Assembly (NCBI GenBank): GCA_002050275.1
Contig: MWTB01000027.1
Coordinates: 17,225 to 81,224 of the forward strand
Length of the DNA: 64,000 bases
Direction: 5' to 3'
DNA from: Anaerolineae bacterium UTCFX1
GTDB taxonomy: Bacteria > Chloroflexota > Anaerolineae > Anaerolineales > Villigracilaceae
In this document: positions 8,350-64,000 of the stretch, piece by piece
Layout of the letters: each line of letters starts with the position of its first letter
How positions within the stretch are numbered: the first letter of the stretch is position 1
Made by a program: the position numbers and the translations under genes
Notes under the pieces: generated by a model
Database searches by the model: none
What the model was told of the DNA's origin: nothing
What the model saw: only the letters and a program-made list of their open reading frames with translations

Positions 8350-8370
8350 ATCAACTCCTTGATCGTTATT

Positions 8371-10510: not shown

Positions 10511-10535
10511 GAATCGTCCTTTTCTGCTGATTTGA

Positions 10536-10931
10536 TTAAATGAATTGCGCAAATGTTGTGTTGCGTAATTGCGTCGTTAGGGCGTCTTGTGCTTCGCGCC
10601 AAACAAGTTGCATGGCGCAGTTTTCTTCGAGCGCGCACAGACCGACTCGGTCAACGCAGACGTTGAGTTGAACGGGCCCGTCAATTGCTTCGATGACTTC
10701 GAGCATGGTGATTTGGCTGGGATCGCGCGCGAGAGCGATGCCTCCTCGCGCGCCGCGAGAGGTGTGGAGGAGCCCCGCAATTGAGAGTTGCGAGATGATT
10801 TTCGCTAGAAACGAAGAGGGAATGCATTGCGCTTTTGCGATCTGACTGGTGGAGATGCGCTTACCTTGGCTGGCGCGCGTAAGGTGTAAGATCGCCCGCA
10901 AAGCGTAATCGGCTTGACGTGTAATTTGCAT
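10536..10931 (-). CDS. Rrf2-family transcriptional regulator with a Cys triad (possible Fe-S sensor)
   Basis: MQITRQADYALRAILHL...SSFLAKIISQL...TSRGARGG is a typical Rrf2 wHTH. CVDRVGLCALEENC gives C-x7-C-x5-C spacing as in IscR/NsrR. Start set at ATG 10931. Confidence 0.88.
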   Translation of the reverse strand: MQITRQADYALRAILHLTRASQGKRISTSQIAKAQCIPSSFLAKIISQLSIAGLLHTSRGARGGIALARDPSQITMLEVIEAIDGPVQLNVCVDRVGLCALEENCAMQLVWREAQDALTTQLRNTTFAQFI

Positions 10932-11820: not shown

Positions 11821-13938
11821 ATGAACGACGCCCACAAAACGCATAAAGACTATCATCATGAAGAGATGAAACACGATTCGCATGCGCAGCCAGATGTGAA
11901 GCCGTCTCATTCCGCCCACTTGGGACACGAAATGCACGATTCGGCTTCTGCACAAAATAAACATGCGAGCCATACAGATCATAGCGGACATGAAGACATG
12001 TTCCGCAAACGGTTCTGGGTCTCGTTGTTGTTGAGCATTCCTGTTTTGCTTTACACGCCCATGCTCCAGATGTGGTTCGGGTTCAAAATGCCTGAATTCA
12101 TGGGCAGTCAGTGGGTGGCGGCGCTGTTCGCCGTGATCGTTTTCATCTATGGCGGCGTGCCGTTCATTCAAATGGCTCTCCCAGAGATTCGCAACCGCCA
12201 GCCTGGCATGATGCTGTTGATCTCGCTGGCGATCTCGGTCTCGTTTGTGTACAGCCTCGCCGCGTTGTTCTTCAACTTGGGTGAAGGGTTCTTCTGGGAA
12301 CTGGTCACGCTGATTGACATCATGCTCTTGGGGCATTGGATCGAGATGCGCAGTGTCCGTCAGGCTTCGGGCGCGTTGAACGCGTTGGCAAAGTTGATGC
12401 CCGACACAGCCGAACACATCATGCCCGACGGCAGTGTCCACACGATGCCAGCCTCTTCGTTGAAGTTGAATGATCTCGTGCTTGTCCGCCCTGGGGCGAG
12501 TATCCCTGCCGATGGTGTGGTGGCAGACGGCGAGTCTGATGTGAACGAAGCGATGATCACGGGCGAGTCGCTTCCTGTGAAAAAAACTGTCGGCGCGAAA
12601 GTGATCGCGGGCAGTATCAACCAAGATGGAAGTCTGCGCGTCCGCGTATCAGCCATCGGAGAACAAACCGCGCTGGCTGGCATCATGCGCCTGGTTCGTG
12701 ATGCGCAACAAAGTAAATCGAACACGCAAATATTAGCCGATAAAGCGGCGGGTTGGCTTTTCTATCTCGCCATCGGCGTTGCCGCGCTCACTGCTATTTT
12801 ATGGACGATCGCTCTGGGCTTCGACCTCTTCACGTTGGAGCGCGTTGTCACCGTGTTGGTGATTGCGTGTCCGCACGCGCTGGGGCTGGCTGTCCCGCTC
12901 GTCGTGGCGATCAGCACCACGTCCGCCGCGCAGAACGGGATCTTAGTCCGCAACCGTTTGGCGCTCGAAGCCGCGCGTGAAATTGACGTGGTGATCTTCG
13001 ACAAAACTGGCACGCTCACGAAAGGCGAACAGGGCGTGGTTGCCGTCAAAACCAACGGCGTGGATGAAGACCACGCTCTTGCCCTCACCGCAGCTGTTGA
13101 GGCGGACTCGGAGCACATCATCGCCCGCGCGATCCGCGATGCGGCGAAAGAGAAAAATTTGCAACTGCCAGTCGTCTCCGATTTTGAAGCCATCAAGGGA
13201 CGCGGCATCCGCGCCAAACACAACGGGAAGGATTTGTGGGTGGGCGGTCCGCGCCTGTTGGAGATGCTCGACATTCAACCCGATTCGGCAATTTCGGAAT
13301 TCGCTTCTTCCTCAGGGACAAAGGGTCAGACCGTCGTCTATCTGATCGTTGATGGGAAGATTTTCGCCGCGCTTGCATTGGCAGATGTGATTCGTCCTGA
13401 AAGTTACGAAGCCATCAAAAAACTTAATGAGATGAACGTGCAAGTCGCCATGCTGACGGGTGACAGCAAAGATGTCGCCAAAGCCGTCGCCGATGAACTT
13501 GGAATCAAATTGTATTTTGCCGAAGTATTGCCTGAACATAAAGATGAAAAAGTGATCGAACTTCAGAAGCAAGGAAAGAAAGTTGCCATGGTCGGCGATG
13601 GTGTCAACGATGCGCCCGCTCTCACTCGCGCCGACGTAGGCATTGCAATCGGCAGTGGCACCGACGTGGCTGTTGAATCCGCTGGGATCATCTTGGTGAA
13701 AAGTAATCCGTTGGATGTGGTCAAGATATTCAAATTGAGCCGCGCCAGTTACAACAAAATGATCCAAAACCTGATCTGGGCGTCGGGCTACAACGTTGTT
13801 GCTTTGCCGTTAGCCGCAGGCATCCTTGCCTCGGCTGGGATATTGCTTTCGCCAGCCGTAGGCGCACTGTTGATGTCGGTGAGCACCATCGTCGTGGCGA
13901 TCAACGCCCAATTACTGCGGCGCGTAAATTTAAATTAA
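11821..13938 (+). CDS. copB: P1B-type copper ATPase, CopB-like (His-rich N-terminus, CPH motif)
   Basis: The first 60 aa are His-rich and there is no HMA domain. The TM6 motif is [12 protein letters not shown] (CPH). DKTGTLT, MLTGD and [10 protein letters not shown]-type signatures are present. Confidence 0.92.
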
Positions 13939-14391: not shown

Positions 14392-16815
14392 ATGACCGAT
14401 ACAAAACAACTTACCCTTCCTATCACAGGTATGACCTGCGCCAACTGCGTCGCGACAGTAGAGCGCAACCTTAAGAAATTAGACGGCGTACAGACCGCCG
14501 TTGTTAACTTATCGTCTGAGCGTGCAACGGTGGACTTTGACGCGACAAAGCTGGCGTTGCCTGATTTTATCGCGCGCGTTAATCGCGCAGGATACGGCGT
14601 AGCGACGGGCGAAGCGGACCTCGTGATTAAGCGCATCGCAGACGATAATGATGCACGCCGACTCGAAGCGGCGTTGCTCAAATTGGACGGCGCGCTCGAA
14701 GCGCAAGCATCGTACGCCAGTGGAAAGGCGCGCGTCAAATATGTTCCAACCATTGTCAGCCAATCGGAGATTCGGGCGGCGGTGACGCAGGCGGGTTTTG
14801 AGGCGATGGAACTTGGCGGAGACGCCGAAGATGCTGAAGCCATTGCGCGTGAGCATGAAGTTAATGAACAGTTTCGGATGTTCGTTATCGGTTTAATCTT
14901 TACCGCGCCGTTGTTCGTCTTTTCCATGCTGCGCGATTTCAATTTATTGGGGCATTGGGCGCACGCGCCCTGGGCGAATTATGCGATGATGATCGTCGCT
15001 GCGCCGGTTCAGTTCTATGTGGGCTGGCAGTATTACGTCGGCGCGTACAAATCTTTGCGCAACGGTTCCGCCAATATGGACGTCCTTGTTGCGATGGGCT
15101 CTACGGTCGCCTACGTTTATTCCATATTTATTGCCTTCGGAATAATTCCAGGACATGTCTATTTCGAGACTGCCGCAGTGATCATCACGTTGATCCGGCT
15201 TGGAAAATATTTGGAAGCGCGCGCCAAAGGACGCACCTCTGAAGCGATCAAGAAGTTGATGGGTCTTCGCGCTAAAACAGCGCGCGTCATTCACAATGGG
15301 GAGGAAGTTTCCGTTCCGGTGGACGATGTTCGCGTCGGCAACGTCGTCCTTGTGAAGCCCGGTGAGATGATACCGGTAGACGGCGTGGTCATCGAAGGAA
15401 AATCCAGCGTGGACGAATCCATGCTGACAGGCGAGTCGTTGCCGGTGGAAAAAAAGCCAGGCGACGCAGTCGTTGGCGCGACGTTGAACAAACTTGGATT
15501 GCTGAAATTCGAGGCGACGAAAGTCGGTAAAGAGACCGCGTTGGCGCGCATTATCAAGCTTGTGGAAGATGCGCAAGGCAGTAAGGCGCCGATTCAAAGA
15601 CTTGCCGATCAAGTTTCCGCTGTGTTCGTACCAGTGGTAATCGTCATCGCCGCGCTGACCTTTGCAGGTTGGTATTTCCTCGGCGCTCCGGGCGACCTGA
15701 CTCGCGCACTAATCAATATGGTCGCCGTGCTCGTAATTGCATGTCCATGCGCGATGGGGCTTGCCACGCCTACGGCGGTGATGGTAGGGACGGGCAAAGG
15801 CGCGGAGATGGGCGTGCTGTTCAGAAATAGCGAGGCGTTGGAGCGCGCGGGAAAAGTGAACATTGTGGCGCTGGATAAAACTGGAACGCTTACAAAGGGC
15901 CAGCCTGCCGTGACGGATATTGTGTCTGCCGGTGCGGATTGGAACGAAGATAAAATCCTCTATATGGCGGCTTCCGCAGAAACAGGCAGCGAACACGGAT
16001 TAGGCGAGTCTATCGTAGCCGCTGCAACCGCGCGCGATATTCGGCTGAGCGAAGCGTCGGATTTTAAAGCGTTGACCGGTATGGGCATTTCGGCAAGCGT
16101 GGACGGTCGGCGAGTCCTGATCGGCAACCTGCGCTTGATGAACGCGGAAGATATTTTCGTCCAGGACATTCACGCGGAGATGGAGCGGCTTCAGACGGAG
16201 GCGAAAACCCCAATGATCGTTGCCGTAGACAATGAGGTCGCAGGCGTGGTCGCCGTGGCGGATACGTTAAAAGAACATTCAAAAGACGCGATTGGCGAAT
16301 TGCATCGCATGGGTTTGAAGGTGGCGATGATCACGGGCGACAACCATAAGACGGCTGAAGCGATTGCAAAACAGGTGGGCATTGACCGAACGCTAGCAGA
16401 GGTGTTGCCGGAAGGGAAGGCAGACGAAGTAAAGAAATTGCAAACAATGGACAATGGTCAACGCTCTGCGATCTCTGTAGTTGCCATGGTTGGCGACGGC
16501 ATCAATGATGCACCGGCGCTCGCTCAGGCGGACGTTGGCATCGCGATCGGCACAGGAACGGACGTTGCCATGGCGGCGGCGCCTGTGACTTTGATGAGCG
16601 GCGACTTGCGCGGCATAGCGAAAGCAATCCGCTTATCGAGAAAGACATTATCAACGATCAAACAAAACTTGTTCTGGGCGTTCTTCTATAACGTGATCCT
16701 AATTCCCGCCGCCGCACTGGGTTGGTTGAACCCAATGCTCGCCGCCGGCGCGATGGCTTTTAGCAGCGTCTTTGTTGTGACGAATAGTTTGAGGCTAAAA
16801 TCGTATACAGGTTAA
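14392..16815 (+). CDS. copA: P1B-1 copper-exporting ATPase CopA (CPC motif)
   Basis: The N-terminal HMA carries GMTCANC. A second HMA-like repeat lacks CxxC (IADDND). [12 protein letters not shown] (CPC), DKTGTLT, ITGD and VGDGINDAP are present. Confidence 0.95.
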
Positions 16816-18212: not shown

Positions 18213-18299
18213 GTTGAGAGTATAATCACGGCGTGCGATCGGCGATGGACTATGCCGAAAGACGAAAACTATCAGATCTTTTATGTCAGGAGAATCATA

Positions 18300-19355
18300 A
18301 TGAATATCAATTTCGCTATGTGGCGCAAAGCCTCGTGGCAGCTCATCAAAATGGACGATAAAAAGGAATGGGATGCGCTCGACGTAGTCTCGAAGTGGCT
18401 GATTGCTACGCGTTCGGCGGTGACGTTGGTCACCGTCTATTCGTGCGTAATCGCAGGCATCCTTGCCGCGCGCGATGGATATTTTTCGTGGATTCCGTTC
18501 CTGATCGTCACGCTCGGTCTGTTTATCGCGCACGGCACAAATAACCTGCTCAACGATTACACCGATTTCTCGCGCGGCGTGGATAAAGATAACTATTTCC
18601 GCTCTCAGTATGGGGTTCACCCGCTTGTGCAGGGCTTCTTTACGAAACCGCAGCAGATCCGCTGGTTTTTAGCGAGCGGCACGTTAGCCACCTTGGCAGG
18701 CATATATGTTTTGATCAGCACAGGCTTTAACCTTGCCGTTCTGGGGTTATTCGTATTCGGCGCGATTACGCTGCTGGCATATACTTACCCCTTTAAATAT
18801 TGGGGGTTGGGCGAGTTTGCCATCTTTCTCGTTTGGGGTCCCATCATCATCGGCGGGGTCTATTATGTGCTGGCGTTGTTCAGTGGAAACGAGATCGTCA
18901 TGTCTAATGTGTGGAGCGCGGTTCTTGCGGGCGTTCCGTACGGACTCGGCGTCGCCAGCATCAACATCGCTAAACATATTGACAAACGCGACGACGATAA
19001 GATCAAAGGCGTCGGTACGTTCCCCGTTCGCGTCGGCGAAGCGTTTGCGCGCCGCACCGATCAGGTCGCGATCTGCCTCATTTACATTATCGTTGCTTAT
19101 CTGGTATTCGTCTCGCGCTACTTCACCCCTGCGATGCTGATCGTTTTTCTTGCCGCGAAAGACGCTCTCAATGTCATCAAAGTTTTAAATCGCCCAAAGC
19201 CATCCGAAGCGCCGGAACAAGCTCGCGCATTCTGGCCCATTTGGTTTTCAGGTTTCGCCTTTCAACATAACCGAAAATTCGGCGGCTATATTTTGCTTGG
19301 CTTGATCATTGACGCGTTGCTTCGCACCTACCTGCCAACGTTTTGGGCTTTCTAA
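18300..19355 (+). CDS. UbiA/MenA-like polyprenyltransferase, long form (paralog of 9497..10510)
   Basis: NNLLNDYTDFSRGVD and HIDKRDDD motifs. It is co-linear with the 9497 paralog along its full length. Start set at ATG 18300 with AGGAGA SD. Confidence 0.8.
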   Translation: MNINFAMWRKASWQLIKMDDKKEWDALDVVSKWLIATRSAVTLVTVYSCVIAGILAARDGYFSWIPFLIVTLGLFIAHGTNNLLNDYTDFSRGVDKDNYFRSQYGVHPLVQGFFTKPQQIRWFLASGTLATLAGIYVLISTGFNLAVLGLFVFGAITLLAYTYPFKYWGLGEFAIFLVWGPIIIGGVYYVLALFSGNEIVMSNVWSAVLAGVPYGLGVASINIAKHIDKRDDDKIKGVGTFPVRVGEAFARRTDQVAICLIYIIVAYLVFVSRYFTPAMLIVFLAAKDALNVIKVLNRPKPSEAPEQARAFWPIWFSGFAFQHNRKFGGYILLGLIIDALLRTYLPTFWAF

Positions 19356-51987: not shown

Positions 51988-53178
51988 TTACGATAAGAGT
52001 CTTGCCGCAGCAGACGCCATTAATGCCGCGCCGTTGATCAGGGCGCGTTCGTCGAAATCGAACTTAGGATGATGATGTCCATAGTTGAGATTCCTTTCAT
52101 CGTTAGCGGAACCCACCATGAAGTAGCATCCGCCAATCTTTTCTTGCATATAACCCATATCTTCCGCGCCCATGGTCAAGTATTGGGCGGTATCAATGTC
52201 TGCCTGAGGGAAAAGTTTTCGCGCGGCTTGTAAGACTGTTTCAGTCGTTTGCTCTTCGTTGATTACCGTTGGCGTGACCTGTTCGAGCGCGATCTCCACT
52301 TCGCACTGCATGGCGGTTGCCACGTTGCGTACGATCTGTTTGAAGCGTTCTAGCGTCGTCTTCCGCACGTCGGGGTCGAAGTTTCGAATCGTGCCGTTGA
52401 TCTCGGCGGTTTGCGGGATGATATTAAAGGCGGTCCCCGCGTGGAGCGATGTGACGCTTATGACCGCCGGCTTGAGCGGCGAGACATTGCGCGCAACGAT
52501 GGTTTGCAGCGCGACGACAATATGCGCCGCGGCGGCGACTGGGTCAATAGTTGTATGGGGCGCGGCTCCGTGCCCGCCTTTACCGGTCAACTTAACGGAG
52601 AACATCTCGGCTCCCGCCATGACAGGTCCTTGAGCGACGCTGAACCAACCGAGCGGCTTGTCATTCCATAAGTGGAGGGCGAGCGTCTTGTCCACTTTGG
52701 GCGTATCCAGTACGCCGTCGCGCATCATCATTAACGCGCCGCCCATCTCTTCGCCGTTGTTGCCCTCTTCGGAAGGCTGGAAGCAGAATTTTATGTTGCC
52801 CGCTAAATGCTCTTTGTGAGCGTTTAATAATTTTGCTACGGTCAACCCGATGGCGGTATGACCGTCGTGCCCGCAAGCGTGCATGACGCCGGGATTAGCG
52901 GATGAGTATTCCGCGCCGGTTTCTTCGTTGATGGGGAGCGCGTCCATATCGAAGCGCAGGAGGATCGTGGGACCCGGCTTCGAGCCTTCCAGATAGGCGA
53001 CCACGCCGGTCTTGCCGACTCCTTTGGTCACTTCGAGCCCAAGTTCCTCAAGTTCTTTTGCAACGATGCCGCCGGTGCGAATCTCATTGAACCCCAGTTC
53101 GGGATGCTTATGAAAATCGCGGCGCAAGGTCTGAGTGTAAGAGAAAAGTTCTTCGGCTTGTTGGAGGAAGTTGGGCAT
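51988..53178 (-). CDS. M20-family amidohydrolase (N-acyl-amino-acid amidohydrolase-like)
   Basis: HKHPELGFNE, MHACGHDGH and FQPSEEG are M20D signatures. Confidence 0.88.
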   Translation of the reverse strand: MPNFLQQAEELFSYTQTLRRDFHKHPELGFNEIRTGGIVAKELEELGLEVTKGVGKTGVVAYLEGSKPGPTILLRFDMDALPINEETGAEYSSANPGVMHACGHDGHTAIGLTVAKLLNAHKEHLAGNIKFCFQPSEEGNNGEEMGGALMMMRDGVLDTPKVDKTLALHLWNDKPLGWFSVAQGPVMAGAEMFSVKLTGKGGHGAAPHTTIDPVAAAAHIVVALQTIVARNVSPLKPAVISVTSLHAGTAFNIIPQTAEINGTIRNFDPDVRKTTLERFKQIVRNVATAMQCEVEIALEQVTPTVINEEQTTETVLQAARKLFPQADIDTAQYLTMGAEDMGYMQEKIGGCYFMVGSANDERNLNYGHHHPKFDFDERALINGAALMASAAARLLS

Positions 53179-53268
53179 AATATCTCTGTTTTCAATTGGG
53201 ATTATAAATTGAGACTTTGAAGGCTAGTCTGACGTTCTGATGCTCAACGAATCTGCGCCCGGCGGCGC

Positions 53269-53997
53269 TTAATCATATTTGACGACCTTGAAAGTTTCTT
53301 CATAGCGCGGATGCTCGTCGGAGCTATTTTGGGCGTGGCGCGCTTTCATACGTTCGGTTAGTTTGTCGGCGTCTTGCACTTGCGTTTTATGTTTGAGAAT
53401 GGCTTGCAGTTTAATATCCCACGTTTCGGTGACGTCTACGATGATATTGGGCTGCGTGGTGAGCGAACACCAAACTTCTTTTGGCATATGAGGCTCGAAA
53501 CCTTCGGCGAGCAATTCGGGGAAGAAGACCTTGTTGCCGGCGGCGGGAAAGACCGCGTCGAGGACAACTTGTCCGCAGGCGCGGTGGTCGGGATGATTGA
53601 GACCGTATAAGGCGAATAGATTTTGCGGGTCGCAGGTGACGAGGATGTCTGGCTTGTAGCGGCGAATCTCACGGACGATGTTGCGGCGCAGATCAAGGTT
53701 GGGGGTGAGGTAGCCATCCTCCACGTCCAGAAAATGGACCGCTTTTGCGCCGATCACGTCTGCCGCATGGCGTTGTTCCGTATGACGCAGCGCGCATAAT
53801 TTTTCGGTCGTCATATCCGCTTGTGTGACGGGATTGAAACCTTTATCGCCGCAGGTCAGAAGCAGGTAGGTGATCTCATGCCCGGCGCGCGCCCAGAGGG
53901 CGAGCGTGGCGCCGCAGAAAAATTCGGGGTCGTCGGGATGCGCTAGAATGACCAGAATTTTTTGAGAGGTTTCCCACACGCCGCTGATGTCAGTCAT
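53269..53997 (-). CDS. PIG-L/LmbE-family deacetylase
   Basis: ILVILAHPDDPEF and HPDH motifs. Confidence 0.85.
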   Translation of the reverse strand: MTDISGVWETSQKILVILAHPDDPEFFCGATLALWARAGHEITYLLLTCGDKGFNPVTQADMTTEKLCALRHTEQRHAADVIGAKAVHFLDVEDGYLTPNLDLRRNIVREIRRYKPDILVTCDPQNLFALYGLNHPDHRACGQVVLDAVFPAAGNKVFFPELLAEGFEPHMPKEVWCSLTTQPNIIVDVTETWDIKLQAILKHKTQVQDADKLTERMKARHAQNSSDEHPRYEETFKVVKYD

Positions 53998-54922
53998 CGG
54001 TCTTCTTCTGAGATGTGGATTTGCCGCAGGTGCAGCCGCCCGAATCGTGACGGTCGCAAGGACCTTGCGCTTTGCGCCGTAGGGCTTCGAGTTCGTCCCA
54101 AGGCTGCAGGTCGGTATGAGCGAAAGTTTCGGTAAATCTCTTGCCGTCTTCTGTCTCGATGAATACTATCACTTTGTTGCTCATCGGCAAGATGTCTACC
54201 ACTTTACCTTCGCCTTTGGGGGTAACGACGCGTTTGTTGCGTTTGGGCAATTGTTTGCGTGCCTCGACGTATTGTTCATATTCATAAATGAGACAACAGC
54301 GTAAGCGTCCGCACATACCGGTGATCTCTTCGGGCGTAAGCGAGATGCCTTGTTCCTTTGCCATCTTGATCGAAATGGGCGAAAACTCGGTCAGGAATTT
54401 GGAACAGCAGCGCGTTTCGATTCCGCACGCGCCCATGCCGCCAATGATCTTCGCGACGTCGCGCGGACCGATCTGCCGCATCTCGATGGTCGCGTTGGGG
54501 TAGAGGTTGTGCATGTCTTTTTTCAGCGACTTAAGATCTACTTTATCTTCTGTTTCGGAACTGAATAGCAAAGCGAGGCGCGAACCGTCGTAACTATATT
54601 CTGCGGCGACGATTTTTACGCCGTCGAGTTTAAGCTCCGCTGCGCGAGCGCGGCAGTTGATCATCGCTTCCGTCTGTTTGGATTGCCATGACTGCTGCAA
54701 TAAGAGATCGCGCGGGGTTGCGCGTCTTTCTACGGATCTCCAGCCGCCGTCTGGTTTGGGAAGCGCTTCCTTTTCCAAACGGATGACCTCGCCGAGGTGT
54801 TTGCCGCGCGAAGTATCTACGATCACATGCTCGCCAATATGCACATCGGGCACGGCGGAAGCGTCGAAATTGTAAATTTTGCCCACTTTGGTAAAGCGGA
54901 CGCCGATAATAGGTGTTTGCAT
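53990..54922 (-). CDS. PSP1-domain protein (RicT/YaaT-like)
   Basis: VGVRFTKVGKIYNFD...G..VIV.T.RG...G.V and the Cys-rich CGRLRCCL pattern. Start set at ATG 54922. 8-nt overlap with the PIG-L gene. Confidence 0.8.
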   Translation of the reverse strand: MQTPIIGVRFTKVGKIYNFDASAVPDVHIGEHVIVDTSRGKHLGEVIRLEKEALPKPDGGWRSVERRATPRDLLLQQSWQSKQTEAMINCRARAAELKLDGVKIVAAEYSYDGSRLALLFSSETEDKVDLKSLKKDMHNLYPNATIEMRQIGPRDVAKIIGGMGACGIETRCCSKFLTEFSPISIKMAKEQGISLTPEEITGMCGRLRCCLIYEYEQYVEARKQLPKRNKRVVTPKGEGKVVDILPMSNKVIVFIETEDGKRFTETFAHTDLQPWDELEALRRKAQGPCDRHDSGGCTCGKSTSQKKTDD

Positions 54923-55020
54923 AATATCGAAATTATACCGTAAGAGGACGCGCCCGGCTTGAAGACGATTCATGGTAGCATTTGCTTCGTGAGCGATTTT
55001 GATCAATATCTGGAGAATAT

Positions 55021-55428
55021 ATGTCTGAACGGAATAAGGCGACGATTCGTCGTTTTTACGACGAATTAGTCAACCAAAGGAAAATTGAGCTTGCCGATGA
55101 AATGATTCTCGAAGATTTTGACGACCATGCCGCGCGAGGGACGGGATTGGAGAATTTCAAGACGCTGTACGCCATTATGGTGCGGATATTTCCCGACATT
55201 CAAGCCAGAATCGAAGATTTGATCGCCGAGGACGATAAGGTTGTGGCGCGGGTGGAGTTTACCGCTACGCAAGCTGGGTCGTTTCGCGGATTTTCGCCCG
55301 CCAACCGTTGCGTAACCTTTTCAGGCGTGGACATCTTCCGCTTCAAAAACAACAGAATCGCCGAACGTTGGGCGCAGCGCGATTTCCTTGGTATGCTGGA
55401 GAAGTTAGGGCATGTGAAGCGGCGTTAG
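55021..55428 (+). CDS. SnoaL-like ester cyclase-family protein
   Basis: NKATIRRFYDELVNQRKIELADEMI..DF.DH and the C-terminal RIAE.W is the typical ester_cyclase pattern. Confidence 0.75.
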   Translation: MSERNKATIRRFYDELVNQRKIELADEMILEDFDDHAARGTGLENFKTLYAIMVRIFPDIQARIEDLIAEDDKVVARVEFTATQAGSFRGFSPANRCVTFSGVDIFRFKNNRIAERWAQRDFLGMLEKLGHVKRR

Positions 55429-55539
55429 CGCGTCGGACAACCGCGCTTTATAGGATAAATGTCATACTTGAAATCTGCAACGAAGGTTGTACACTAGTGT
55501 TGTGTCTTTTAACCTATGTATTAACGAGGAGGCAGTTGT

Positions 55540-55980
55540 ATGAACGTCAAACGGATCGTTCAAATTAGTTTGGTTCTGGCGTTGTTCGCGTCGTCTTTTG
55601 TGAGCGCAAGCCGCGTTCAGGCGGTTCAGCCGTGGCCCTCTTGCTCGAACATCTACTACGTTCAGCCGGGCGATTGGCTTTCAAAGATCGCCAAAAATTG
55701 CGGGGTTACGCTCTCAGAGCTGGTCGCGGCGAACCCGTGGGTCAGTTACTCTTACTATATCTATCCGGGGCAGATGCTCACGATCCCGGGCGGATATAAC
55801 CCCGGCGGTTATTTCTGCGGTCCGGGCTACGATTATTACGGCGGTTATTATGTCGTTTGCCAAGGCGATACGCTGGGCGGCATTGCCATGTATTACGGCG
55901 TGTCAATCAATTATCTGCAATGGAGAAACGGCATTTCCAATGCCAATCGCATTTACGCCGGGCAATGGATACGCCCCTAA
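55540..55980 (+). CDS. Secreted protein with two LysM domains
   Basis: Signal peptide, then YYVQPGDWLSKIAKNCGVTLSELVAANPW...GQMLTIP and YVVCQGDTLGGIAMYYGVSINYLQWRNGI...IYAGQWIRP. Confidence 0.85.
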   Translation: MNVKRIVQISLVLALFASSFVSASRVQAVQPWPSCSNIYYVQPGDWLSKIAKNCGVTLSELVAANPWVSYSYYIYPGQMLTIPGGYNPGGYFCGPGYDYYGGYYVVCQGDTLGGIAMYYGVSINYLQWRNGISNANRIYAGQWIRP

Positions 55981-56007
55981 AGAACGGCGGAAACGCAATT
56001 TGATAAT

Positions 56008-56037
56008 AAAAAACGCCGGCGCGCCGCCGGCGTTTTT
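56008..56037. terminator. Bidirectional terminator between convergent lysM and mrp genes
   Basis: AAAAAA CGCCGGCG cg CGCCGGCG TTTTT. The T-run abuts the mrp stop codon. Confidence 0.7.
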
Positions 56038-57114
56038 CTATTCCGTGATGCTGACGGCGATTTCGTTCACGCCGCCCAGCGCCGCGACGCTGACCTTTGA
56101 GGCGAGATTTTCAGCGATCTGGCGCAGGGCTTGCGCCGCCGCCGAGTGGGGATGCGAGACGATGATCGGTTTGCCCGTGTCGCCTCCAATGCGGACGTTT
56201 GGATCAATTGGCACGTTGCCGAGGAAGGATGTGCCGGTGACTTGTGCAAGATGTTCGCCGCCGCCGGTTCCGAAGAGGTCCATGTGCGCTCCATCGGGCA
56301 GCTCGAGATACGACATATTTTCAACGATTCCGAGAATCGGCACTTCAAGCGTCTTGAACATATTGAGTCCGCGCCCGGCGTCTTCGAGCGATACCAGTTG
56401 CGGAAGCGTGACGATCACCGCGCCGCTAAGCGGCAAGGCTTGCGCCAGCGAAAGCGACGCGTCGCCGGTGCCGGGCGGAAGGTCAATGATTAAGTAATCC
56501 AGTTCGCCCCATTCCACGTCGCCCAAAAATTGACGGATCGCTGAATTAAGCATCGGTCCGCGCCAAATAAGCGGCTGCCCCGGCTTGACGAGCAGTCCCA
56601 TCGAAATCATCTTCAAACCGTACGCGTCGGCGGGGATGAGACGCTGCCCCTGCGGGGGCGGAAGTTTTGTCACGCCGAGCATAGTGGGTGTGTTGGGACC
56701 GTAAATATCCGCGTCTAGCAATCCGACGCGGGCGCCGCTTTGCGCCAATGCTACCGCGACGTTGACTGACACGGTGGATTTGCCCACGCCGCCCTTGCCG
56801 GAACCGATCGCAATGGCGTTGCGAATTGGGGTTTTGACCAATCCGCGCATACGCCCATCGTTTGGCACGTCCGAATCCATCTTGATGTTGACGGATTTCA
56901 CGCCGTCAATTTTCATGACTGCGTCGCGCGAATCCTTTTCGATCTTGACGCGGAATGGGCAGGCGGGCGTGGTAAGCATGACGGTAAATGAAACCTCTCC
57001 GCCGTTGATTTCAACGTGCCTGACCATGTTGAGGGTTACGAGGTCTTGTTTTAGATCGGGTTCTTGCACAACGCTCAGCGCTTGCAGAACCGCTTCTTTT
57101 GTAATGGCTGTCAT
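56038..57114 (-). CDS. mrp: Mrp/NBP35/ApbC-family P-loop ATPase with N-terminal DUF59 domain; canonical CxxC absent
   Basis: DUF59-like N-terminus (TTPACPF) and deviant Walker A GSGKGGVGKST. Where the family has ENMS.F.CP.CG, this protein reads ENMSYLELPDGAHMDLFG. Confidence 0.9.
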   Translation of the reverse strand: MTAITKEAVLQALSVVQEPDLKQDLVTLNMVRHVEINGGEVSFTVMLTTPACPFRVKIEKDSRDAVMKIDGVKSVNIKMDSDVPNDGRMRGLVKTPIRNAIAIGSGKGGVGKSTVSVNVAVALAQSGARVGLLDADIYGPNTPTMLGVTKLPPPQGQRLIPADAYGLKMISMGLLVKPGQPLIWRGPMLNSAIRQFLGDVEWGELDYLIIDLPPGTGDASLSLAQALPLSGAVIVTLPQLVSLEDAGRGLNMFKTLEVPILGIVENMSYLELPDGAHMDLFGTGGGEHLAQVTGTSFLGNVPIDPNVRIGGDTGKPIIVSHPHSAAAQALRQIAENLASKVSVAALGGVNEIAVSITE

Positions 57115-57180
57115 TTGGTTTCCTTTGTGTGTATAACGGACAAGGAGGCGCGCAAAAGCCGCTTTGCCCGTCTGTATTTG

Positions 57181-57840
57181 CTACGCTGTCGGCGCCGCCG
57201 GCGGATTTGCCGGCTTGGCGGCTTGTGCGGCGGCGCGAGCCGCTTCCTTCGCTTTCTTCGCTTCGGCTTCCGTGATACGGGCGGCTTCTTCGCGTTCATA
57301 GTTTAATGGGCGGATGCTTTTGTAATACTCGCTCGATTTGAGCAGTTTTTCCATATCGTACACATTGCGCCCGTACGAAGAGACTTCAAAGTCGTGATCC
57401 ATTTTGATCGCGTCGAACGGGCAGTATTCTGCGCAATAGCCGCAATTCATGCACAGATCCATGTCAATGTAGAATTCGGTTGGCTCGGGGATCGGTCTGC
57501 CGGTGACCGGGTCGTTTGAGCGCACGATCCAGATGCATTGCGGCGGGCAGACTTTCGGGCAAATGCCGCATGAGGTGCAGAGAATCTCCCGCTTGCCGTC
57601 GGGCAGTTTGTTGTACACGAGGAACGGCAGGAAGCGCGATTCTTCCGGCTGAATTAATTTCTCTTCCGGATACTGAACCGTGAAGATGCCTTTCTGGTCT
57701 TTGCTGGAGCGATGTTGCACACCTTCTTCTGTGTAGTAGCGTTTCTTCCCACGCAAGACCCAGGCGATATCTTCGGTATAGGTATCCCAGAAGCGTTTCC
57801 ATGTGACGCCGAGACCTTTAAGTATTCCTTTACCATACAT
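57181..57840 (-). CDS. nuoI: NADH-quinone oxidoreductase subunit I (2x[4Fe-4S]) with an Ala/Lys-rich C-terminal tail
   Basis: CTSCGICPKVCP and CMNCGYCAEYCP ferredoxin motifs. The tail reads EEAARITEAEAKKAKEAARAAAQAAKPANPPAAPTA. Confidence 0.9.
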   Translation of the reverse strand: MYGKGILKGLGVTWKRFWDTYTEDIAWVLRGKKRYYTEEGVQHRSSKDQKGIFTVQYPEEKLIQPEESRFLPFLVYNKLPDGKREILCTSCGICPKVCPPQCIWIVRSNDPVTGRPIPEPTEFYIDMDLCMNCGYCAEYCPFDAIKMDHDFEVSSYGRNVYDMEKLLKSSEYYKSIRPLNYEREEAARITEAEAKKAKEAARAAAQAAKPANPPAAPTA

Positions 57841-57852
57841 AGTTGCTTCTCC

Positions 57853-59598
57853 TTAACGGTCGCATTCGCCCATGACCATATCGAACATGGCGAGCAAGAC
57901 GACGAAATCTGCGATCTTGGTTCCTACGGAAATTTTCTCCAACGCGGTGACGTTGACGAACGATGGAGCGCGCACGTGATATCGCCACGGGTTGGGCTTG
58001 CCGTTTGACAGCACATAGAAACCGAGTTCGCCCTTCGGCGATTCGATACGCCCATACGCTTCACCCGCTGGGACCCGGACCTGATAGGCTGGCTTCTGCG
58101 AGTTGATCGGTCCCTGTGGGATCTGGCGGATGGCTTGATCCAAAATGCGCAACGACTGGCGGATTTCGTCAATGCGGATCAAGTAGTTATCCATCAGATC
58201 GCCGTTGTAACGCACCGCTACGTCAAAATCGAAGCGATCATAAATGCCGTATGGGTCGGCGCGACGAATGTCGTAAGGCACCCCAGCCGCGCGTAAAACG
58301 GGACCGGTGATCGAGTAGGCGACCGCGTCTTCCGCGTTAATCATGCGGATGCCCCGCATGCGCGCCAGCAAGACCTCGTTCTCCGATAACATGCGATCGA
58401 GTTCGTCGGTTTTGGGCGGAATGCGTTCGTACACTAAATCCTTGATCTTCTGCATGACGTCGTCGGGAATGTCGCGCACGACGCCGCCGAAGCGATAATA
58501 GTTGCACATCATGCGCGAGCCTGAGATGGCTTCGAACACGTCGAGGACGAGTTCGCGCTCTTCATAGGCGTAGAGCGAGGGCGTATACATCGCGCCGAGG
58601 TCGTTGAGCAATGTTCCGATGAAGACGAGGTGATTCTGAATACGGCTCAGTTCGGAAACGATCACGCGGATATAGTCGGCGCGTTCGGCGACCGGAATCT
58701 TCATCAACTTTTCGACGGCGAGCGCGTAGCCAAAATTATTCGTCATCGAATTAAAGTAATCGAGCCGGTCGGTGTACGGCATGTTTTGCAAGAAAGTATT
58801 CCGCTCGCCGATCTTTTCGTGGTTGCGATGCAAATAGCCCAGCACGGGTTTCAGCCCTTTGATCGTCTCGCCTTCGAGCGTCATCACCGCGCGGAAGACG
58901 CCATGCGTAGAAGGATGATGCGGACCCATATTTATGACGATACGGTCGGAACTGATGCCGTCTTCGTTCTCAACCGTGTAACGCGCCAGCGCGCCGTAGA
59001 GCAGCGCCTCGCCTTCGGGAATCCATTTTTCGGGGTCGAAATTTTTGGGAAATGTCAGATTGTCGCCAAAGGGATTCAGGTCTTCCGCCATGGCGAACTT
59101 CCCTTGGGGCCAGCGGCTTTTGAACGGTTTGACGTCTTCCTCGTAAAAGCCCTCCTTCCAATCTTTGCGGAGCGGATGCCCTTCAAAGCCTTCCCACATT
59201 AGAATGCGACGCAAGTCGGGATGACCGCTGAATTTAATGCCTAGCAGATCCCATACTTCGCGTTCTTGTAAATCTACGCCGGGCCAGAGGTGGATCAACG
59301 AAGGGACTTCTACCGGGTCTATACGCGGAATTTGAACTTTGAACGCGAGTCCCGGTCCGCCGCTAGTGCGGTACGCGTGATAGACGACTTCCATTTTATC
59401 GGGCGCATAATCCACGCCAGTGACGGAAGACAGCAGATCAAAACCGAATTCATCGCGGATCGCGGCAGCCACCTCGAGCAGCGAATCTTTTTCGACGATG
59501 AAGCCGGTGTAGTCGGGACGCGCGTCAAGTTGGACGACGTCGGGGAAGCGGGCGGCAAGGTCAACGGTTGCGGTGGAAGCGGGGGCGGGCATTGTCAT
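57853..59598 (-). CDS. nuoCD: Fused NADH-quinone oxidoreductase subunit C/D
   Basis: The NuoC-like N-terminal third is followed by NuoD signatures: [25 protein letters not shown], and the C-terminal [10 protein letters not shown]. No hydrogenase-type CxxC pairs. Start set at ATG 59598, one nt after the nuoB stop. Confidence 0.92.
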
Positions 59599-59599
59599 C

Positions 59600-60226
59600 T
59601 TATTCCTTCTGTGCGGCGGCAGCTTTAATGTCTGCCGTTCGACGTGGGTCAATCAAGTCGGGTCCGAGGATCGGAACTGGAACATAGTTTGGATCTTTGA
59701 CTTTGCGTTTGTACCACGAGGCTTCTTTGATGGTTTGTTTATCTATTTTTTCTTGCAGTTTGATCAACCCAGCGATAAGGGCTTGCGGGGTCGGGGGGCA
59801 ACCGGGGATGTATACGTCGACCGGTAGGAATTTATCAATGCCTGCGACGACGTTGTAGCCTTCTTTGAACGGGCCGCCGCCGGAAGCGCATGCGCCCATT
59901 GCCACCACATACTTGGGTTCGGGCATTTGGTTGTAAAGACGGATGATGGGAGGCAACATTTTCTTGGTGACGGTTCCCGAAACGATCAAGAGGTCGGCTT
60001 GGCGCGGCGTGGGGCGCATGACTTCCATGCCGAAGCGCGCCATGTCGTAGCGGGCAGTTTGCGCGGCGATCATTTCGATCGCGCAACAGGCGAGACCGAA
60101 CATGAGGGGCCAGACCGACGAACGCCGTCCCCAGTTGTAGAGGCGGTCGAGCGTGGTCACGGCGACGGCGTGCCGCAGGTCTTCTGGAATTTCATATTGA
60201 GGCAGGTTGAAAGTTTCACTGTCCAT
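59600..60226 (-). CDS. nuoB: NADH-quinone oxidoreductase subunit B (N2 cluster subunit)
   Basis: [19 protein letters not shown] and IPGCPP cluster-ligand motifs. Start set at ATG 60226 with GGAG SD. It has a C-terminal extension of about 60 aa. Confidence 0.92.
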
Positions 60227-60437
60227 AAAAATTCTCCTCGAACCAATCTTGATATATGGCGTACAGAATTTCGTCGTTGGCGAGCGCAGGGTCGTCGTCA
60301 AACTCCGGCAAGGCAAGCGTCCAATCGTAGATCTGTTTCAGCGTGACGTCTTCGATGTTTACGCGGGGATATGCGCGCTTCAGAGCGATAGCGATGGCGA
60401 AGGACGCTTCCCAGTTGAGGGCGCTGTCGTTTATCAT
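60216..60437 (-). CDS. iscX: IscX (YfhJ)-like Fe-S assembly protein
   Basis: 73 aa. [62 protein letters not shown] aligns by eye with E. coli IscX (W, AL..AYP, W, FDDDP, NE.IL.AI, W.E). It overlaps the nuoB start by 11 nt. Confidence 0.75.
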
Positions 60438-60485
60438 GATGAGATCTAAATCTAGTTTCGTTCACCGCTCCTTATTTTCCGGCGT

Positions 60486-61955
60486 TTATTCTTCTCGATT
60501 ATCAATCTGCGCGCGCTGCAACTTGCCCGAATAATCCACATAGATAGATTTCCATTCGGTGAACACTTCGAGCGCGGCTTGCCCGGCTTCGCGATGACCG
60601 TTGCCGGTTCCGCGCACGCCGCCGAAAGGGAATTGGATCTCGGCGCCGGTCGTGCCGTGATTGATGTACACTAAACCAGTGAAGATATCGCGCATGGCGG
60701 TGAACGCCTGATTAACGTCTTGCGTAAAGATCGAAGTGGAAAGCCCGTACTTGGAGCGGTTGTTCACTTCGATGGCTTCCTTGAGCGAGCCAACTTCGAT
60801 GATCGAAAGCACGGGACCGAAAATCTCTTCGGCTTCGAGCATAGAGCCGGGTTGGACGTTGTCGAACAGCGTCGGCGCGTAAAAGAAACCTTTGCCGTCT
60901 ACATTCGCAATAGAAGCGCCCGTCAAGACGCGCGCTTCCTTCGCGCCGGCTTGTACCATGCTGTCAATGCGCGCGAGCGCGGCTTTATTGATGACAGGTC
61001 CGACGTCCACTGCAGGATCGAGTCCGTCGCCCAGCGTAAGTTTTTTAGCGCGCTCGGTCAGCGCTTCTTTGAGCTTGCTCGCGATTCCTTTTTGAACGAT
61101 CAGACGGCTGGCGGCGGTACAGCGTTGACCGGTAGTGCCGAACGCCGCCCACAGGCTGGCATCTACGACGAGTTCGAGGTTGGCGTCGTCCATTACGATG
61201 ATGGCATTCTTGCCGCCCATCTCAAGCGATAACTTCTTGTTGAATTTGCCCGCCGCTTCCGCGATGGACCGCCCCGTTGTTGTGGAGCCGGTGAACGATA
61301 GCACGCGTACATCGGGATGGCTGACGAGAGCCTTCGCCACGTCTGCGCCGGGCGCGAGCAATAGGTTGAACACACCGGCTGGAACGCCTGCTTCCTCAAA
61401 GATTTTTACGAACGCGGCAGAAATGGCGGGAATCTCCGGCGAGGGCTTCCAGATGACTGTGTTGCCCGCGACGAGCGCAGGAAAGATCTTCCATGATGGC
61501 ACTGCGATAGGGAAATTCCATGGTGTAATAAGCCCGACGACGCCCGACGGATCGCGCACTGCCATGCCGAATTTGTTCATCATTTCTACGGGCGCGGTAT
61601 AGCCGAGCAGACGGCGTCCTTCGCCGCCCATGTAAAACGCCATATCAATGGCTTCTTGCACGTCGCCGCGCGCTTCTGCGATCACTTTGCCCATTTCGCG
61701 CGTGAGCAGTTGTGAAAGCTCTTCTTTCTTTTGTTTAAGAAGATCGCCGATGCGGAAGAGTATCTCTCCGCGCAATGGGGCGGGGGTGAGACGCCACGCG
61801 TCAAAAGCGTCCTTTGCCGCATGGACCGCCGCGTCTACATCGGAGATTTCCGCTTGCGCGATATCTGCGATAAGTTCTTCATTGGCTGGGTTGATAGTTT
61901 GAAACGCGCTTTTGCCTGCGACCCATTTGCCGTTAATGTAATTCTTGAATTCCAT
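60486..61955 (-). CDS. NAD(P)-dependent aldehyde dehydrogenase
   Basis: ALDH motifs: FTGSTTTG, LEMGGKNA, the GQRCTA catalytic Cys, and EEIFGPV. Confidence 0.9.
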   Translation of the reverse strand: MEFKNYINGKWVAGKSAFQTINPANEELIADIAQAEISDVDAAVHAAKDAFDAWRLTPAPLRGEILFRIGDLLKQKKEELSQLLTREMGKVIAEARGDVQEAIDMAFYMGGEGRRLLGYTAPVEMMNKFGMAVRDPSGVVGLITPWNFPIAVPSWKIFPALVAGNTVIWKPSPEIPAISAAFVKIFEEAGVPAGVFNLLLAPGADVAKALVSHPDVRVLSFTGSTTTGRSIAEAAGKFNKKLSLEMGGKNAIIVMDDANLELVVDASLWAAFGTTGQRCTAASRLIVQKGIASKLKEALTERAKKLTLGDGLDPAVDVGPVINKAALARIDSMVQAGAKEARVLTGASIANVDGKGFFYAPTLFDNVQPGSMLEAEEIFGPVLSIIEVGSLKEAIEVNNRSKYGLSTSIFTQDVNQAFTAMRDIFTGLVYINHGTTGAEIQFPFGGVRGTGNGHREAGQAALEVFTEWKSIYVDYSGKLQRAQIDNREE

Positions 61956-62049
61956 CGAACACCTCCGGGATTGAAAGCGTTACCGCTTGAACTGCTCGCA
62001 GATTATAGCGCTTGAATTGAAATTCGCTGATTATTTCGTAAATATATAT

Positions 62050-62076
62050 TTGCATAAATTAGAAAGTGAGTATAAT
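62050..62076 (+). promoter_or_regulatory. Promoter-like TTGCAT-15-TATAAT placed for a leaderless transcript
   Basis: TATAAT at 62071-62076 ends 6 nt before ATG 62083. There is no SD in between. Confidence 0.45.
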
Positions 62077-62082
62077 CACTTT

Positions 62083-62664
62083 ATGACTGTGACAACCGCT
62101 CGGCGTAAAATACTGGCTTATGTGACCGCGCATCGAACAGCATCGGCGCGGGCTATCTCGCGCGGACTGGAAATGTCGTCGGCGACGGTGCGGCATCATT
62201 TGCGCGTTCTGCTTGCGGACGGGAGAGTCGCTTTAACTGCGTCGCGCGAACGCGGCGCGACGCGCGGCAGGCCCGAGAAGGTTTATTCAATTCCGCGCGC
62301 GACATTAGGCAATAATTTACCCGCGTTGAGCGAAGCGCTTTTTGCGGAATCCGGCGGAAAGATCCGTGTGGAAGCGTTGGCGAAGCGCTTGGCAGGCGAA
62401 GCCAACTTCAGGAATCAGCCAGCGGCGAGACGGCTGAATCTCATCGTCGAAAAAATGAACCAAATGAAATATCATGCGCGTTGGGAGGCGGGCGCAGGCG
62501 GACCGCGCATCATCTTTGGGCATTGCCCGTATGCGGCGATCATCGCGAAACGACCCGAATTATGCCGGATGGACGCGGCGTTATTACGCGAATTATTTGG
62601 CGAGGAATTTCAGCAGATCGCAAAAATAGAAAATCTACAAGGCGTATGCGTCTTTGTGAAGTAA
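62083..62664 (+). CDS. ArsR/COG2345 (SufR-like) wHTH regulator with a C-terminal three-Cys domain
   Basis: The N-terminal ARRKILAYV....SARAISRGLEMSSATVRHHLRVLLADGRV is a wHTH. The C-terminus reads GHCPYAAIIAKRPELCRMDAALLRELFG...GVCVF. Start set at ATG 62083. Confidence 0.75.
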   Translation: MTVTTARRKILAYVTAHRTASARAISRGLEMSSATVRHHLRVLLADGRVALTASRERGATRGRPEKVYSIPRATLGNNLPALSEALFAESGGKIRVEALAKRLAGEANFRNQPAARRLNLIVEKMNQMKYHARWEAGAGGPRIIFGHCPYAAIIAKRPELCRMDAALLRELFGEEFQQIAKIENLQGVCVFVK

Positions 62665-62745
62665 ACTTTCCCTGAACGAACATCAACTCTCTCGCGCAAG
62701 CCGCGTCAGTTGCTTGTGTGCGGGTTTTATAAACGAGGATGCGTT

Positions 62746-64000
62746 ATGTCTATTGTGAAGCACGCCCCAACGTTGACGCTGGAAGAAGCCGCGAACTTAG
62801 CCGAACGCCTGTATGGTGTGCGAGGAACTTTGCGACCGTTGCCTAGCGAGCGCGATCAGAATTTTTTGTTGGACGCGGGCGAGGCGAAGTATGTGCTAAA
62901 GATCGCCAACGCAATGGAAGAGCGCGCTTTGCTTGTTGCGCAAAATGAGGCAATGACTCGCGCCGCTGGCTTGGGGTTGTTGCCGCAAGCCATCCGATCG
63001 ACGCGCGGAGAGGAAATTGAAGAGGCGCACTCTAACGGCGAAAAGCATTTCATCCGTTTGATCGCGTATCTTAACGGAACGCCGATGGGGGGTGTGAAAC
63101 GGCATTCATCCGAACTGTTGTACGATTTGGGCGATAAGTTAGGTCGGTTGGACGGAATCCTGCAACGTTTCGATACGCCTGCTCTTCATCGTCGTTTTCA
63201 TTGGGATTTGGCGCACGGATTGGAAGTTATCCGTGCGAATTGTAATCTGTTGCGCGATGCAACGTTGCGCCGTATGGTTTCACAACTGACCGCGAATTTT
63301 GAAAAACATACCTCGCCGCTGTTATCGCACTTACGGACGAGCGTTGTGTATAACGATGCCAACGACAACAATATTTTGGTCGGCGGCGGAGCGGATATTT
63401 ATTCCAGCGATCAAACGGTGACGGGCTTCATTGACTTGGGCGACATGACGCATAGTTATACCGTAAGCGATCTGGCGGTTGCGATCGCGTATGCGATTCT
63501 GAATAAGCCGAATCCGCTGGAGACGGCGGCGAATATAACGAAGGGGTATCACGCGTCTTTTCCGTTGCGCGAAGATGAGATAGCGGCGTTGTGGGGGTTG
63601 GCAACATTGCGGCTGTGTATGAGCGTGTGCATTGCCGCCGAACAACGACGCTCTCAGCCCGCTAACGCGTATCTGAACGTCAGCCAGAAAGCGATACGCG
63701 CGACGTTGCCGAAACTGCTGGCGATTCATCCGCGTTTTGCGGAGGCGGCGCTTCGCGAAGCATGCGGGCTTCCTCCTTCGGCAACGTCGTCGCAGGTCGT
63801 GAAATGGCTGAAAGGGAACGTGGCATCATTCGCGTCAATTCTATCGGTTGATTTGCGGCGCGAAAAAGCAGCGGTTTTTGATCTGAGCGTTGGCAGTCCT
63901 ATTTGGCGCGGCGATCCACGCGACAATGTAGAACCGCAATTGACGAGACGTTTGAACGTATTGTTAGAAGAGTCGGGCGCGCAGGTTGGCATCGGTCAAT
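62746..64000 (+). CDS. APH/hydroxylysine-kinase-like phosphotransferase; the 3' end lies outside the window (absent from the ORF track)
   Basis: I translated the frame by hand from ATG 62746 (GAGGA SD) to the window edge and found no stop. The protein begins MSIVKHAPTLTLEEAANLAERLYG...RDQNFLL. The catalytic loop is VYNDANDNNILV and the metal loop is GFIDLGD, as in the aminoglycoside/choline kinase fold. Confidence 0.8.
   Translation, partial: MSIVKHAPTLTLEEAANLAERLYGVRGTLRPLPSERDQNFLLDAGEAKYVLKIANAMEERALLVAQNEAMTRAAGLGLLPQAIRSTRGEEIEEAHSNGEKHFIRLIAYLNGTPMGGVKRHSSELLYDLGDKLGRLDGILQRFDTPALHRRFHWDLAHGLEVIRANCNLLRDATLRRMVSQLTANFEKHTSPLLSHLRTSVVYNDANDNNILVGGGADIYSSDQTVTGFIDLGDMTHSYTVSDLAVAIAYAILNKPNPLETAANITKGYHASFPLREDEIAALWGLATLRLCMSVCIAAEQRRSQPANAYLNVSQKAIRATLPKLLAIHPRFAEAALREACGLPPSATSSQVVKWLKGNVASFASILSVDLRREKAAVFDLSVGSPIWRGDPRDNVEPQLTRRLNVLLEESGAQVGIGQ

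Follow-up and report, generated by a model that had tools for sequence, protein, structure and literature searches.

The analysed stretch of DNA (hereafter the window, 64 kb in length) came from a sludge bacterium of the Anaerolineales (Chloroflexota), and it carried on the minus strand a cassette encoding three subunits of respiratory complex I together with proteins linked to iron-sulfur (Fe-S) clusters. The cassette began with an aldehyde dehydrogenase gene (ALDH, 60486-61955; PF00171, E 3e-164), followed by iscX (60216-60437, 73 aa; PF04384, TIGR03412), nuoB (59600-60226, 208 aa; PF01058 and the NuoB subfamily models passed), a fused nuoCD (57853-59598, 581 aa; PF00329 and PF00346 in a single protein), nuoI (57181-57840, 219 aa) and mrp (56038-57114), whose product joined DUF59 to an Mrp/NBP35-type P-loop ATPase (PF01883, PF10609). 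The iscX and nuoB genes overlapped by 11 nt, and the following gaps measured 1 nt (nuoB-nuoCD), 12 nt (nuoCD-nuoI) and 66 nt (nuoI-mrp). An earlier note on this DNA had described this order and spacing from ALDH through mrp to a terminator, and the open reading frame list and Pfam scan contained all of it. Immediately past the stop codon of mrp, the final gene, lay a bidirectional intrinsic terminator, AAAAACGCCGGCGGCGCGCCGGCGTTTTTT (about 56008-56037, both strands), a GC-rich hairpin lying between A- and T-runs that could terminate both mrp and a convergent LysM gene. At the other end, a 127-nt shared promoter and operator region with conserved boxes and a palindrome (61956-62082) separated the cassette from a divergent gene for a SufR-like (COG2345-type) regulator (62083-62664, plus strand; Pfam HTH_20/HTH_5, Cys motif, AT-hook). 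The ALDH, iscX, nuoB, nuoCD, nuoI and mrp genes formed one promoter-to-terminator unit in this genome, with a strong terminator.

By their sequence signatures, NuoB, the fused NuoCD and NuoI make up a genuine Q-module of complex I and no hydrogenase core. The N2 ligand motifs of NuoB (CCxxE, GxCAxxGG and PGCPP, with four cysteines including the tandem CC) were found in the window protein as well as in 75/75 orthologues, and the best structural matches in the PDB were NDUFS7, Nqo6 and NdhK, with MbhJ and HycG much weaker. NuoI retained both CxxCxxCxxxCP motifs, and with them all eight ligands of clusters N6a and N6b, in the window protein and again in all 75 orthologues; it aligned to NuoI/TYKY chains at E about 1e-14 and scored under the TIGR01971 cut-off (78 vs 113). 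The earlier proposal that the encoded Nuo proteins are those that carry N2 and N6a/b was thus borne out, with every ligand present. NuoCD is the subunit that forms the quinone-binding site jointly with NuoB. Its NuoD part matched T. thermophilus Nqo4 best (4e-96), then the Aquifex, cyanobacterial and E. coli subunits, and passed the NuoD equivalog model NF004739 (434 bits vs a cut-off of 360). When NuoD was aligned with chain 4 of 2fug/4hea, the quinone-site residues His38, Tyr87 and Asp139 (T. thermophilus numbering) were found to be kept. NuoI was otherwise divergent, in that its N-terminus was about 25-30 residues longer than in E. coli and Thermus, and its low-complexity C-terminal tail, rich in Ala, Lys and Pro, differed even between close relatives.

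The families of NuoB, NuoC, NuoD and NuoI are homologous to parts of the group 4 [NiFe] hydrogenases (Ech/Mbh/Hyc) and of Fpo and NDH-1 type enzymes, and weak matches to MbhJ/L and HycE/G were obtained, so a core of one of these kinds had to be considered. However, the CxxC pairs that hold the NiFe centre were absent at both sites in all 81 NuoD sequences. In the window protein the N-terminal site read GPHHPSTHG and the C-terminus DMVMGECDR, and the lone Cys of GECDR was off-register from the ligand position and was Leu in most relatives. Matches of NuoD to MBS, MBH and FHL ranged from E 1e-59 to 1e-33, those to MBH and FHL being 40-60 orders of magnitude weaker than those to Nqo4 or NDUFS2, and the FpoD and NdhH equivalog cut-offs were missed whereas that of NuoD was reached. 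We therefore dropped the hydrogenase/Ech reading, in agreement with the earlier note, which had argued from the missing [NiFe] pairs that this was no Ech or Mbh core; an enzyme of any of these types is extremely improbable here.

The layout was then compared among relatives in two sets of loci. Scanning a single genome for each GTDB species gave 80 loci with NuoCD identities of 73-90%, Candidatus Villigracilis affinis among them, and a metagenome scan that started from the Mrp protein added deeper relatives, with 17 nuo-bearing loci whose NuoCD was 60-66% identical. All named NuoCD homologues among the matches listed came from Anaerolineales or from Anaerolineae metagenome-assembled genomes (MAGs). 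The order iscX-nuoB-nuoCD-nuoI-mrp was found wherever the contig reached far enough, with iscX in its place in 69/69 and mrp in 65/65 informative GTDB loci, so that the adjacency of these two genes to the nuo genes, which the earlier note had wished to see in related genomes, was conserved. The run nuoB-nuoCD-nuoI-mrp was likewise kept in 17/17 deep metagenome loci.

Other nuo genes were sought with the thirteen E. coli NuoA-N proteins as tblastn queries, and no Nuo homologue besides NuoB, NuoCD and NuoI was found in the 64 kb window, which upheld the reported absence of NuoA, H and J-N and of NuoE, F and G from the locus. The same contig could be followed in public assemblies beyond the window. 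In the 10 kb past the window end, where the earlier note had considered that the remaining subunits might lie, there were no nuo genes; the genes of this region encoded a regulator, a large APH/M23/aminotransferase protein, DAO, PspC, a deaminase and GlmS. Many public contigs carried the identical NuoCD protein, among them a 1.57 Mb scaffold and the MAG GCA_035063925.1. Among relatives, no homologues of NuoA, H, J-N or E-G were found in 823 kb of flanking DNA across the 80 genomes, and in 97 related loci the E. coli Nuo queries detected no membrane nuo gene up to about 10 kb from the cassette. Taking the window and 166 loci together, tblastn with E. coli NuoA-N, a query set holding no Anaerolineales membrane subunit, detected no nuoA, nuoH or nuoJ-N.

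Split nuo clusters are common across bacteria, and this very arrangement has a precedent in the class. Cultured Chloroflexi are summarised as having a '2M' complex I with an extra nuoM between nuoL and nuoM1, and in Anaerolineae nuoBCDI, with nuoCD fused, is placed apart from the nuoL-M1-M2-N operon (McGonigle et al. 2020, PMC7117926, citing Chadwick 2018). A lengthened NuoL is a further trait of the '2M' type. The present locus agreed with that summary in the grouping of nuoB, fused nuoCD and nuoI, in their separation from a membrane-subunit operon and in its host, a member of the Anaerolineales. It differed in having iscX, mrp and a regulator beside nuoBCDI, which the summary given in PMC7117926 does not mention. 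We concluded, with a probability of about 75%, that the locus encodes the Q-module of a split proton-pumping complex I within an Fe-S-linked transcription unit. The missing genes are best explained by a membrane arm, and any electron-input module, encoded at another place in the genome, as reported for the '2M' complex I of Anaerolineae. Consistent with a respiratory role, further respiratory genes with a link to quinones were present in the window, for a QrcD/DsrO-like complex, for multihaem cytochromes and for UbiA prenyltransferases.

The earlier note had left room for a second possibility, in which NuoB, NuoCD and NuoI would form a stand-alone soluble or peripheral module with a partner other than complex I's membrane arm. 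The absence of a membrane nuo gene from the window, and from about 10 kb around the cassette in the 97 related loci, is what such a module would show. Yet His38, Tyr87 and Asp139 and the N-terminal region of NuoI, all of them conserved, face NuoH in solved complexes, no alternative membrane partner was conserved beside the cassette, and published genomes of the class are summarised as carrying the membrane operon elsewhere (PMC7117926). Because the quinone site and all cluster ligands were canonical and no alternative partner was conserved nearby, the stand-alone module was unsupported, and we regard it as very unlikely. A split Q-module is ordinary for the class and is not to be read as a novel soluble enzyme. 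The other possibility raised earlier, a split operon with a previously unremarked assembly cassette, was favoured as far as the split is concerned, although the split had already been published for the class; as for the cassette, the evidence held for iscX and was weaker for mrp. The remaining novelty therefore seems to lie in the conserved Fe-S accessory and regulatory context, and the conserved packaging of the Q-module genes with iscX, a putative Fe-S-sensing regulator and an HCF101-like ATPase appears to be undescribed.

The iscX product was a clear homologue of IscX/YfhJ from the proteobacterial isc operon. It scored 50.3 bits against PF04384 (vs 25) and 53.7 against TIGR03412 (vs a cut-off of 40.4), and it aligned to the E. 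coli structures 1uj8 and 2bzt with the acidic FDDDP motif included. Unlike its proteobacterial counterpart, it was encoded in overlap with nuoB and outside any isc operon, since no isc or suf genes were found among the scanned open reading frames of the window. Over 84 loci the iscX stop codon overlapped the nuoB start by a median of 11 nt (spacing -11), and the spacing was -11 or -8 nt in 77 of them. The fixation of this overlap across the clade indicates that iscX is translationally coupled to nuoB and hence probably co-synthesised with NuoB. Among the matches listed, an IscX protein search returned within-clade matches alone, and a literature search gave no mention of IscX together with Chloroflexi. 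To our knowledge it is not yet clear what IscX does, even in E. coli. For a small protein of iron-chaperone type bound to a bacterial complex I there is a precedent: Sazanov and Hinchliffe reportedly described in 2006 that T. thermophilus complex I bears a frataxin-fold accessory subunit, Nqo15, proposed to serve cluster maintenance. Nqo15 has a different fold (IscX is helical) and is a proven subunit, whereas the association of IscX is suggested by gene coupling; by analogy with Nqo15, an IscX-NuoB partnership is plausible. The IscX of E. coli, small and acidic, binds iron and the desulfurase IscS and competes with frataxin/CyaY for the IscS site (PMC5801593).

The regulator, which was absent from the earlier note, was the most deeply conserved partner of the cassette. 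It had a winged helix-turn-helix, an RGRPEK AT-hook and a C-X12-C-X27-C motif with an Asp three residues past the second Cys, and these motifs recurred in 67-68 of 68 orthologues, including those of deep loci that were only about 30% identical. Its divergent arrangement with nuoB was kept down to the same level of identity. No sequence match for the regulator was found in the PDB. The Cys spacing equalled that of M. tuberculosis SufR, whose ligands are C179, C192, C220 and E195 (PMC6034842), and most SufR-like COG2345 members carry a metal-binding residue at the E195 position. ArnR of Corynebacterium, another member of the family, controls the respiratory nitrate reductase genes narKGHJI (bioRxiv 10.64898/2025.12.26.696629). 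With SufR and its relatives, ArnR included, the present regulator shared the winged helix-turn-helix and GRP AT-hook, the three-Cys spacing, an acidic residue as the fourth ligand and an AT-rich palindromic site within a divergent promoter. It differed in having Asp for Glu at the ligand position and in adjoining nuoBCDI instead of a suf operon: its neighbours were the nuoBCDI unit and, on its far side, an APH/M23/aminotransferase gene, and neither the window nor the 10 kb that follow showed any suf or isc genes beside it.

The region between the two divergent genes contained a sigma-70-type promoter for the cassette with the -10 element GCTATAATC (62001-62009, minus strand), an AT-rich palindrome that was unique in the window (62034-62057), and the regulator -10 element inside GTGAGTATAATCAC (62066-62079, plus strand). 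The region was strikingly conserved. A promoter consensus, gTGATTATACTCAC..AT-rich palindrome TTATGCAAATATATTTTTGCATAA..TTGACT..spacer..TGcTATAAT, whose first box includes the -10 element of the regulator, was recovered in 60 of the 68 loci, and both promoter with palindrome and regulator were kept even in deep relatives without iscX. The obvious reading of the palindrome is a candidate repressor site common to the two divergent promoters. Because the regulator -10 element lay only 7 nt ahead of the ATG, the regulator mRNA is suggested to be leaderless. We also considered GTGATTATACTCAC as a regulator-specific operator and dropped it, since it contains TATAAT and has a near copy upstream of a UbiA gene (18216-18229); an extended -10 element is the likelier reading. 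The sequence at 18216-18229, which nearly repeats the GTGAGTATAATCAC box, lay 22 nt upstream of the UbiA gene start; this suggests that an extended -10 element with very short leaders may recur in this organism.

The gene that followed the conserved promoter varied: ALDH in 29 loci, iscX in 36 and nuoB in 3 deep loci. ALDH, the first gene of the transcription unit here, was missing from all but those 29 of the 68 loci. Being present or absent behind the same promoter, it is a variable passenger of the Q-module transcription unit. The enzyme resembled GucD and 2,5-dioxovalerate dehydrogenase and fell under every NCBIfam equivalog cut-off.

In contrast to iscX, the case of mrp was less clear. 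The earlier note had called its product an Mrp/Ind1-like ATPase; the assignment to the Mrp/NBP35 family stood, but the likeness to Ind1 did not, as the CxxC cluster motif of Ind1, ApbC and Nbp35 was absent. Alignment with 8zkc, 2ph1, 3kb1 and 6g2g revealed that CPxC was replaced by LPDG. This replacement, a single Cys (in TTPACP of DUF59) and an intact Walker A motif of the deviant type (GKGGVGKS) were found in 64/64 clade orthologues, and CxxC was absent likewise from every nuo-linked metagenome Mrp homologue. Thus Mrp has in common with Ind1/NUBPL and ApbC/Mrp the P-loop ATPase family (PF10609) and a gene that adjoins complex I Fe-S subunit genes, and it differs from them in having LPDG clade-wide in place of the CxxC that holds a transferable [4Fe-4S] cluster, in its N-terminal DUF59 and in missing the ApbC equivalog cut-off (304 vs 348). 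Class I FSC-NTPases comprise the DUF59-bearing bacterial and plastid forms, HCF101 being without the C-terminal site (Schwenkert et al. 2009, PMC2805927), and Cys128 in the DUF59 of HCF101 is the residue most critical for cluster binding (PMC2805927). Because its CxxC is missing, Mrp is classed from its motifs as a class I FSC-NTPase of the HCF101/cyanobacterial kind and not as Ind1-like. It shares with that group DUF59 and the P-loop, the lack of a C-terminal CxxC and a lone conserved Cys equivalent to HCF101 Cys128, and, in its context, HCF101 also serves a membrane complex bearing [4Fe-4S] clusters. Unlike HCF101, Mrp had one Cys in total and no Pfam hit to DUF971, and its linkage to nuo is one of position. 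With a single cysteine, cluster binding by Mrp would need a dimer or a partner. A search for a further, canonical Mrp of this genome, started from the CxxC-bearing Mrp representative P0127, gave Sumerlaeota and other phyla, and an Anaerolineae-labelled ApbC (P0469) was unrelated in context. In a quick neighbour-joining tree, P0129, the representative that fell closest outside the nuo-linked Mrp clade, had LISPGTSL for TTPACP and LPNG for CxxC, and would be a nearly cysteine-free Mrp.

Downstream of mrp, almost everywhere in the clade (L091, L109, L136, L155 and many other loci), came genes for a RicT/YaaT-family PSP1 protein, a PIG-L/BshB-like deacetylase and an M20 peptidase. RicT is an Fe-S-containing regulator subunit in Bacillus. 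In the window these genes lay on the minus strand at 53990-55006 (NF041131 RicT, 199.8 bits vs a cut-off of 70), 53269-53997 (Pfam PIG-L) and 51988-53178 (Pfam M20), and the LysM gene and a SnoaL-like gene were inserted between mrp and RicT on the opposite strand. Upstream of mrp, L155 had xanthine-dehydrogenase-like genes, and L136 an OLD-nuclease/UvrD pair. Since the mrp block was kept where nuo was absent, nuoBCDI looks placed beside an older mrp neighbourhood, and the simplest history would be that nuoBCDI came to adjoin it. Dedication of Mrp to complex I is doubtful. In the metagenome relative L136 the OLD-family ATPase/TOPRIM nuclease and UvrD-type helicase (5817-9621), which we take to be Gabija-like, sat where the window clade has nuoBCDI.

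A mechanism that would unite these features can be outlined. The SufR-like regulator would tie synthesis of the Q-module, with its three [4Fe-4S] clusters, to Fe-S or redox status. Produced in cis with NuoB, IscX would bring iron or cysteine desulfurase to the nascent module or might stay bound as an accessory protein. The CxxC-less DUF59-Mrp may aid cluster delivery, as HCF101 does for photosystem I, and the finished Q-module would dock on NuoH/NuoA of the membrane arm. We are aware of no bacterial complex I that carries genes of its own for assembly or Fe-S sensing. The coupling of iscX to nuoB gives IscX a concrete candidate client, and a SufR-like regulator beside the Q-module is a testable link from Fe-S supply to synthesis of the respiratory chain. 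If the proposal is true, this would be the first bacterial complex I to encode a module for its own assembly and regulation, and IscX would have its first defined client. A dedicated role for IscX and the regulator in complex I is possible but, in our estimate, unlikely. The wider proposal of an operon-encoded Fe-S control layer in Anaerolineales and relatives, in which the SufR-like sensor gates Q-module transcription by cluster supply or redox state, IscX is a dedicated adaptor for iron or desulfurase or an accessory subunit (a functional counterpart of Nqo15) and Mrp completes delivery, is just as tentative.

An equally tentative account, possible though not probable, takes the flanking Fe-S genes as housekeeping genes that share neighbourhood and transcript with nuoBCDI by descent. 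Mrp would then be an ordinary class I protein, IscX would serve generally, and the regulator would be an ordinary SufR acting mainly on a suf operon elsewhere. The mrp-RicT-PIG-L-M20 block, conserved without nuo in deeper lineages, fits this account, as do the loose nuoI-mrp spacing (up to 607 nt), the commonness of CxxC-less DUF59-Mrp forms (43/128 representative clusters) and the presence of an unrelated ALDH inside the unit in 29 of the 68 loci. On the other hand, the overlap of iscX with nuoB argues for coupled synthesis, the divergence of regulator and nuoB was kept to about 30% regulator identity, and suf and isc genes were not next to the regulator in the window and 10 kb beyond. Several results weigh against the picture of a split Q-module within an Fe-S-linked unit. 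Neither the window nor the 10 kb past its end contained membrane-arm genes, and the split reading rests on the literature on cultured relatives and on the conserved interface and quinone-site residues. Among the deep loci iscX was found in 9 of the 12 that were informative, and it was missing from L091, L099 and L109, where the rest of the cassette was kept. The N-terminal match of the regulator to TIGR02702 SufR was weak (26 bits vs a cut-off of 178.8), so we call the protein SufR-like and not SufR, and its target and cofactor are predicted from motifs only. The nuoI-mrp gap ranged from -11 to 607 nt and was 340-607 nt in the deeper clade, the mrp-RicT/PIG-L/M20 block persisted without nuo upstream in L136, L155, L114 and L121, and mrp may be a housekeeping gene that is merely adjacent. 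Finally, public runs labelled metatranscriptomic (X1, X5, X6 and X10, over window positions 53000-63000) gave contigs of up to 120 kb and a flat depth across genes and intergenic DNA. Given this flat depth over coding and non-coding DNA, these runs contain substantial genomic DNA; they behaved like DNA and gave no usable expression signal.

Some further features were noted. Contig breaks in the metatranscriptomic-labelled runs recurred at the mrp terminator (about 56030) and within nuoB (about 59875-60055). Elsewhere in the window, a minus-strand cluster at 2427-7733 encoded a quinone-interacting multihaem complex, made up of a QrcD/NrfD-like membrane subunit, a 4Fe-4S protein that is DsrO/QrcC-like and TAT-exported, and two c3/c7-type multihaem cytochromes of 284 and 729 aa. 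Three UbiA-family prenyltransferase genes (8371-9246, 9497-10552 and 18252-19355) lay near two P-type ATPase genes (11821-13938 and 14392-16815), one of which encoded a heavy-metal-associated domain.

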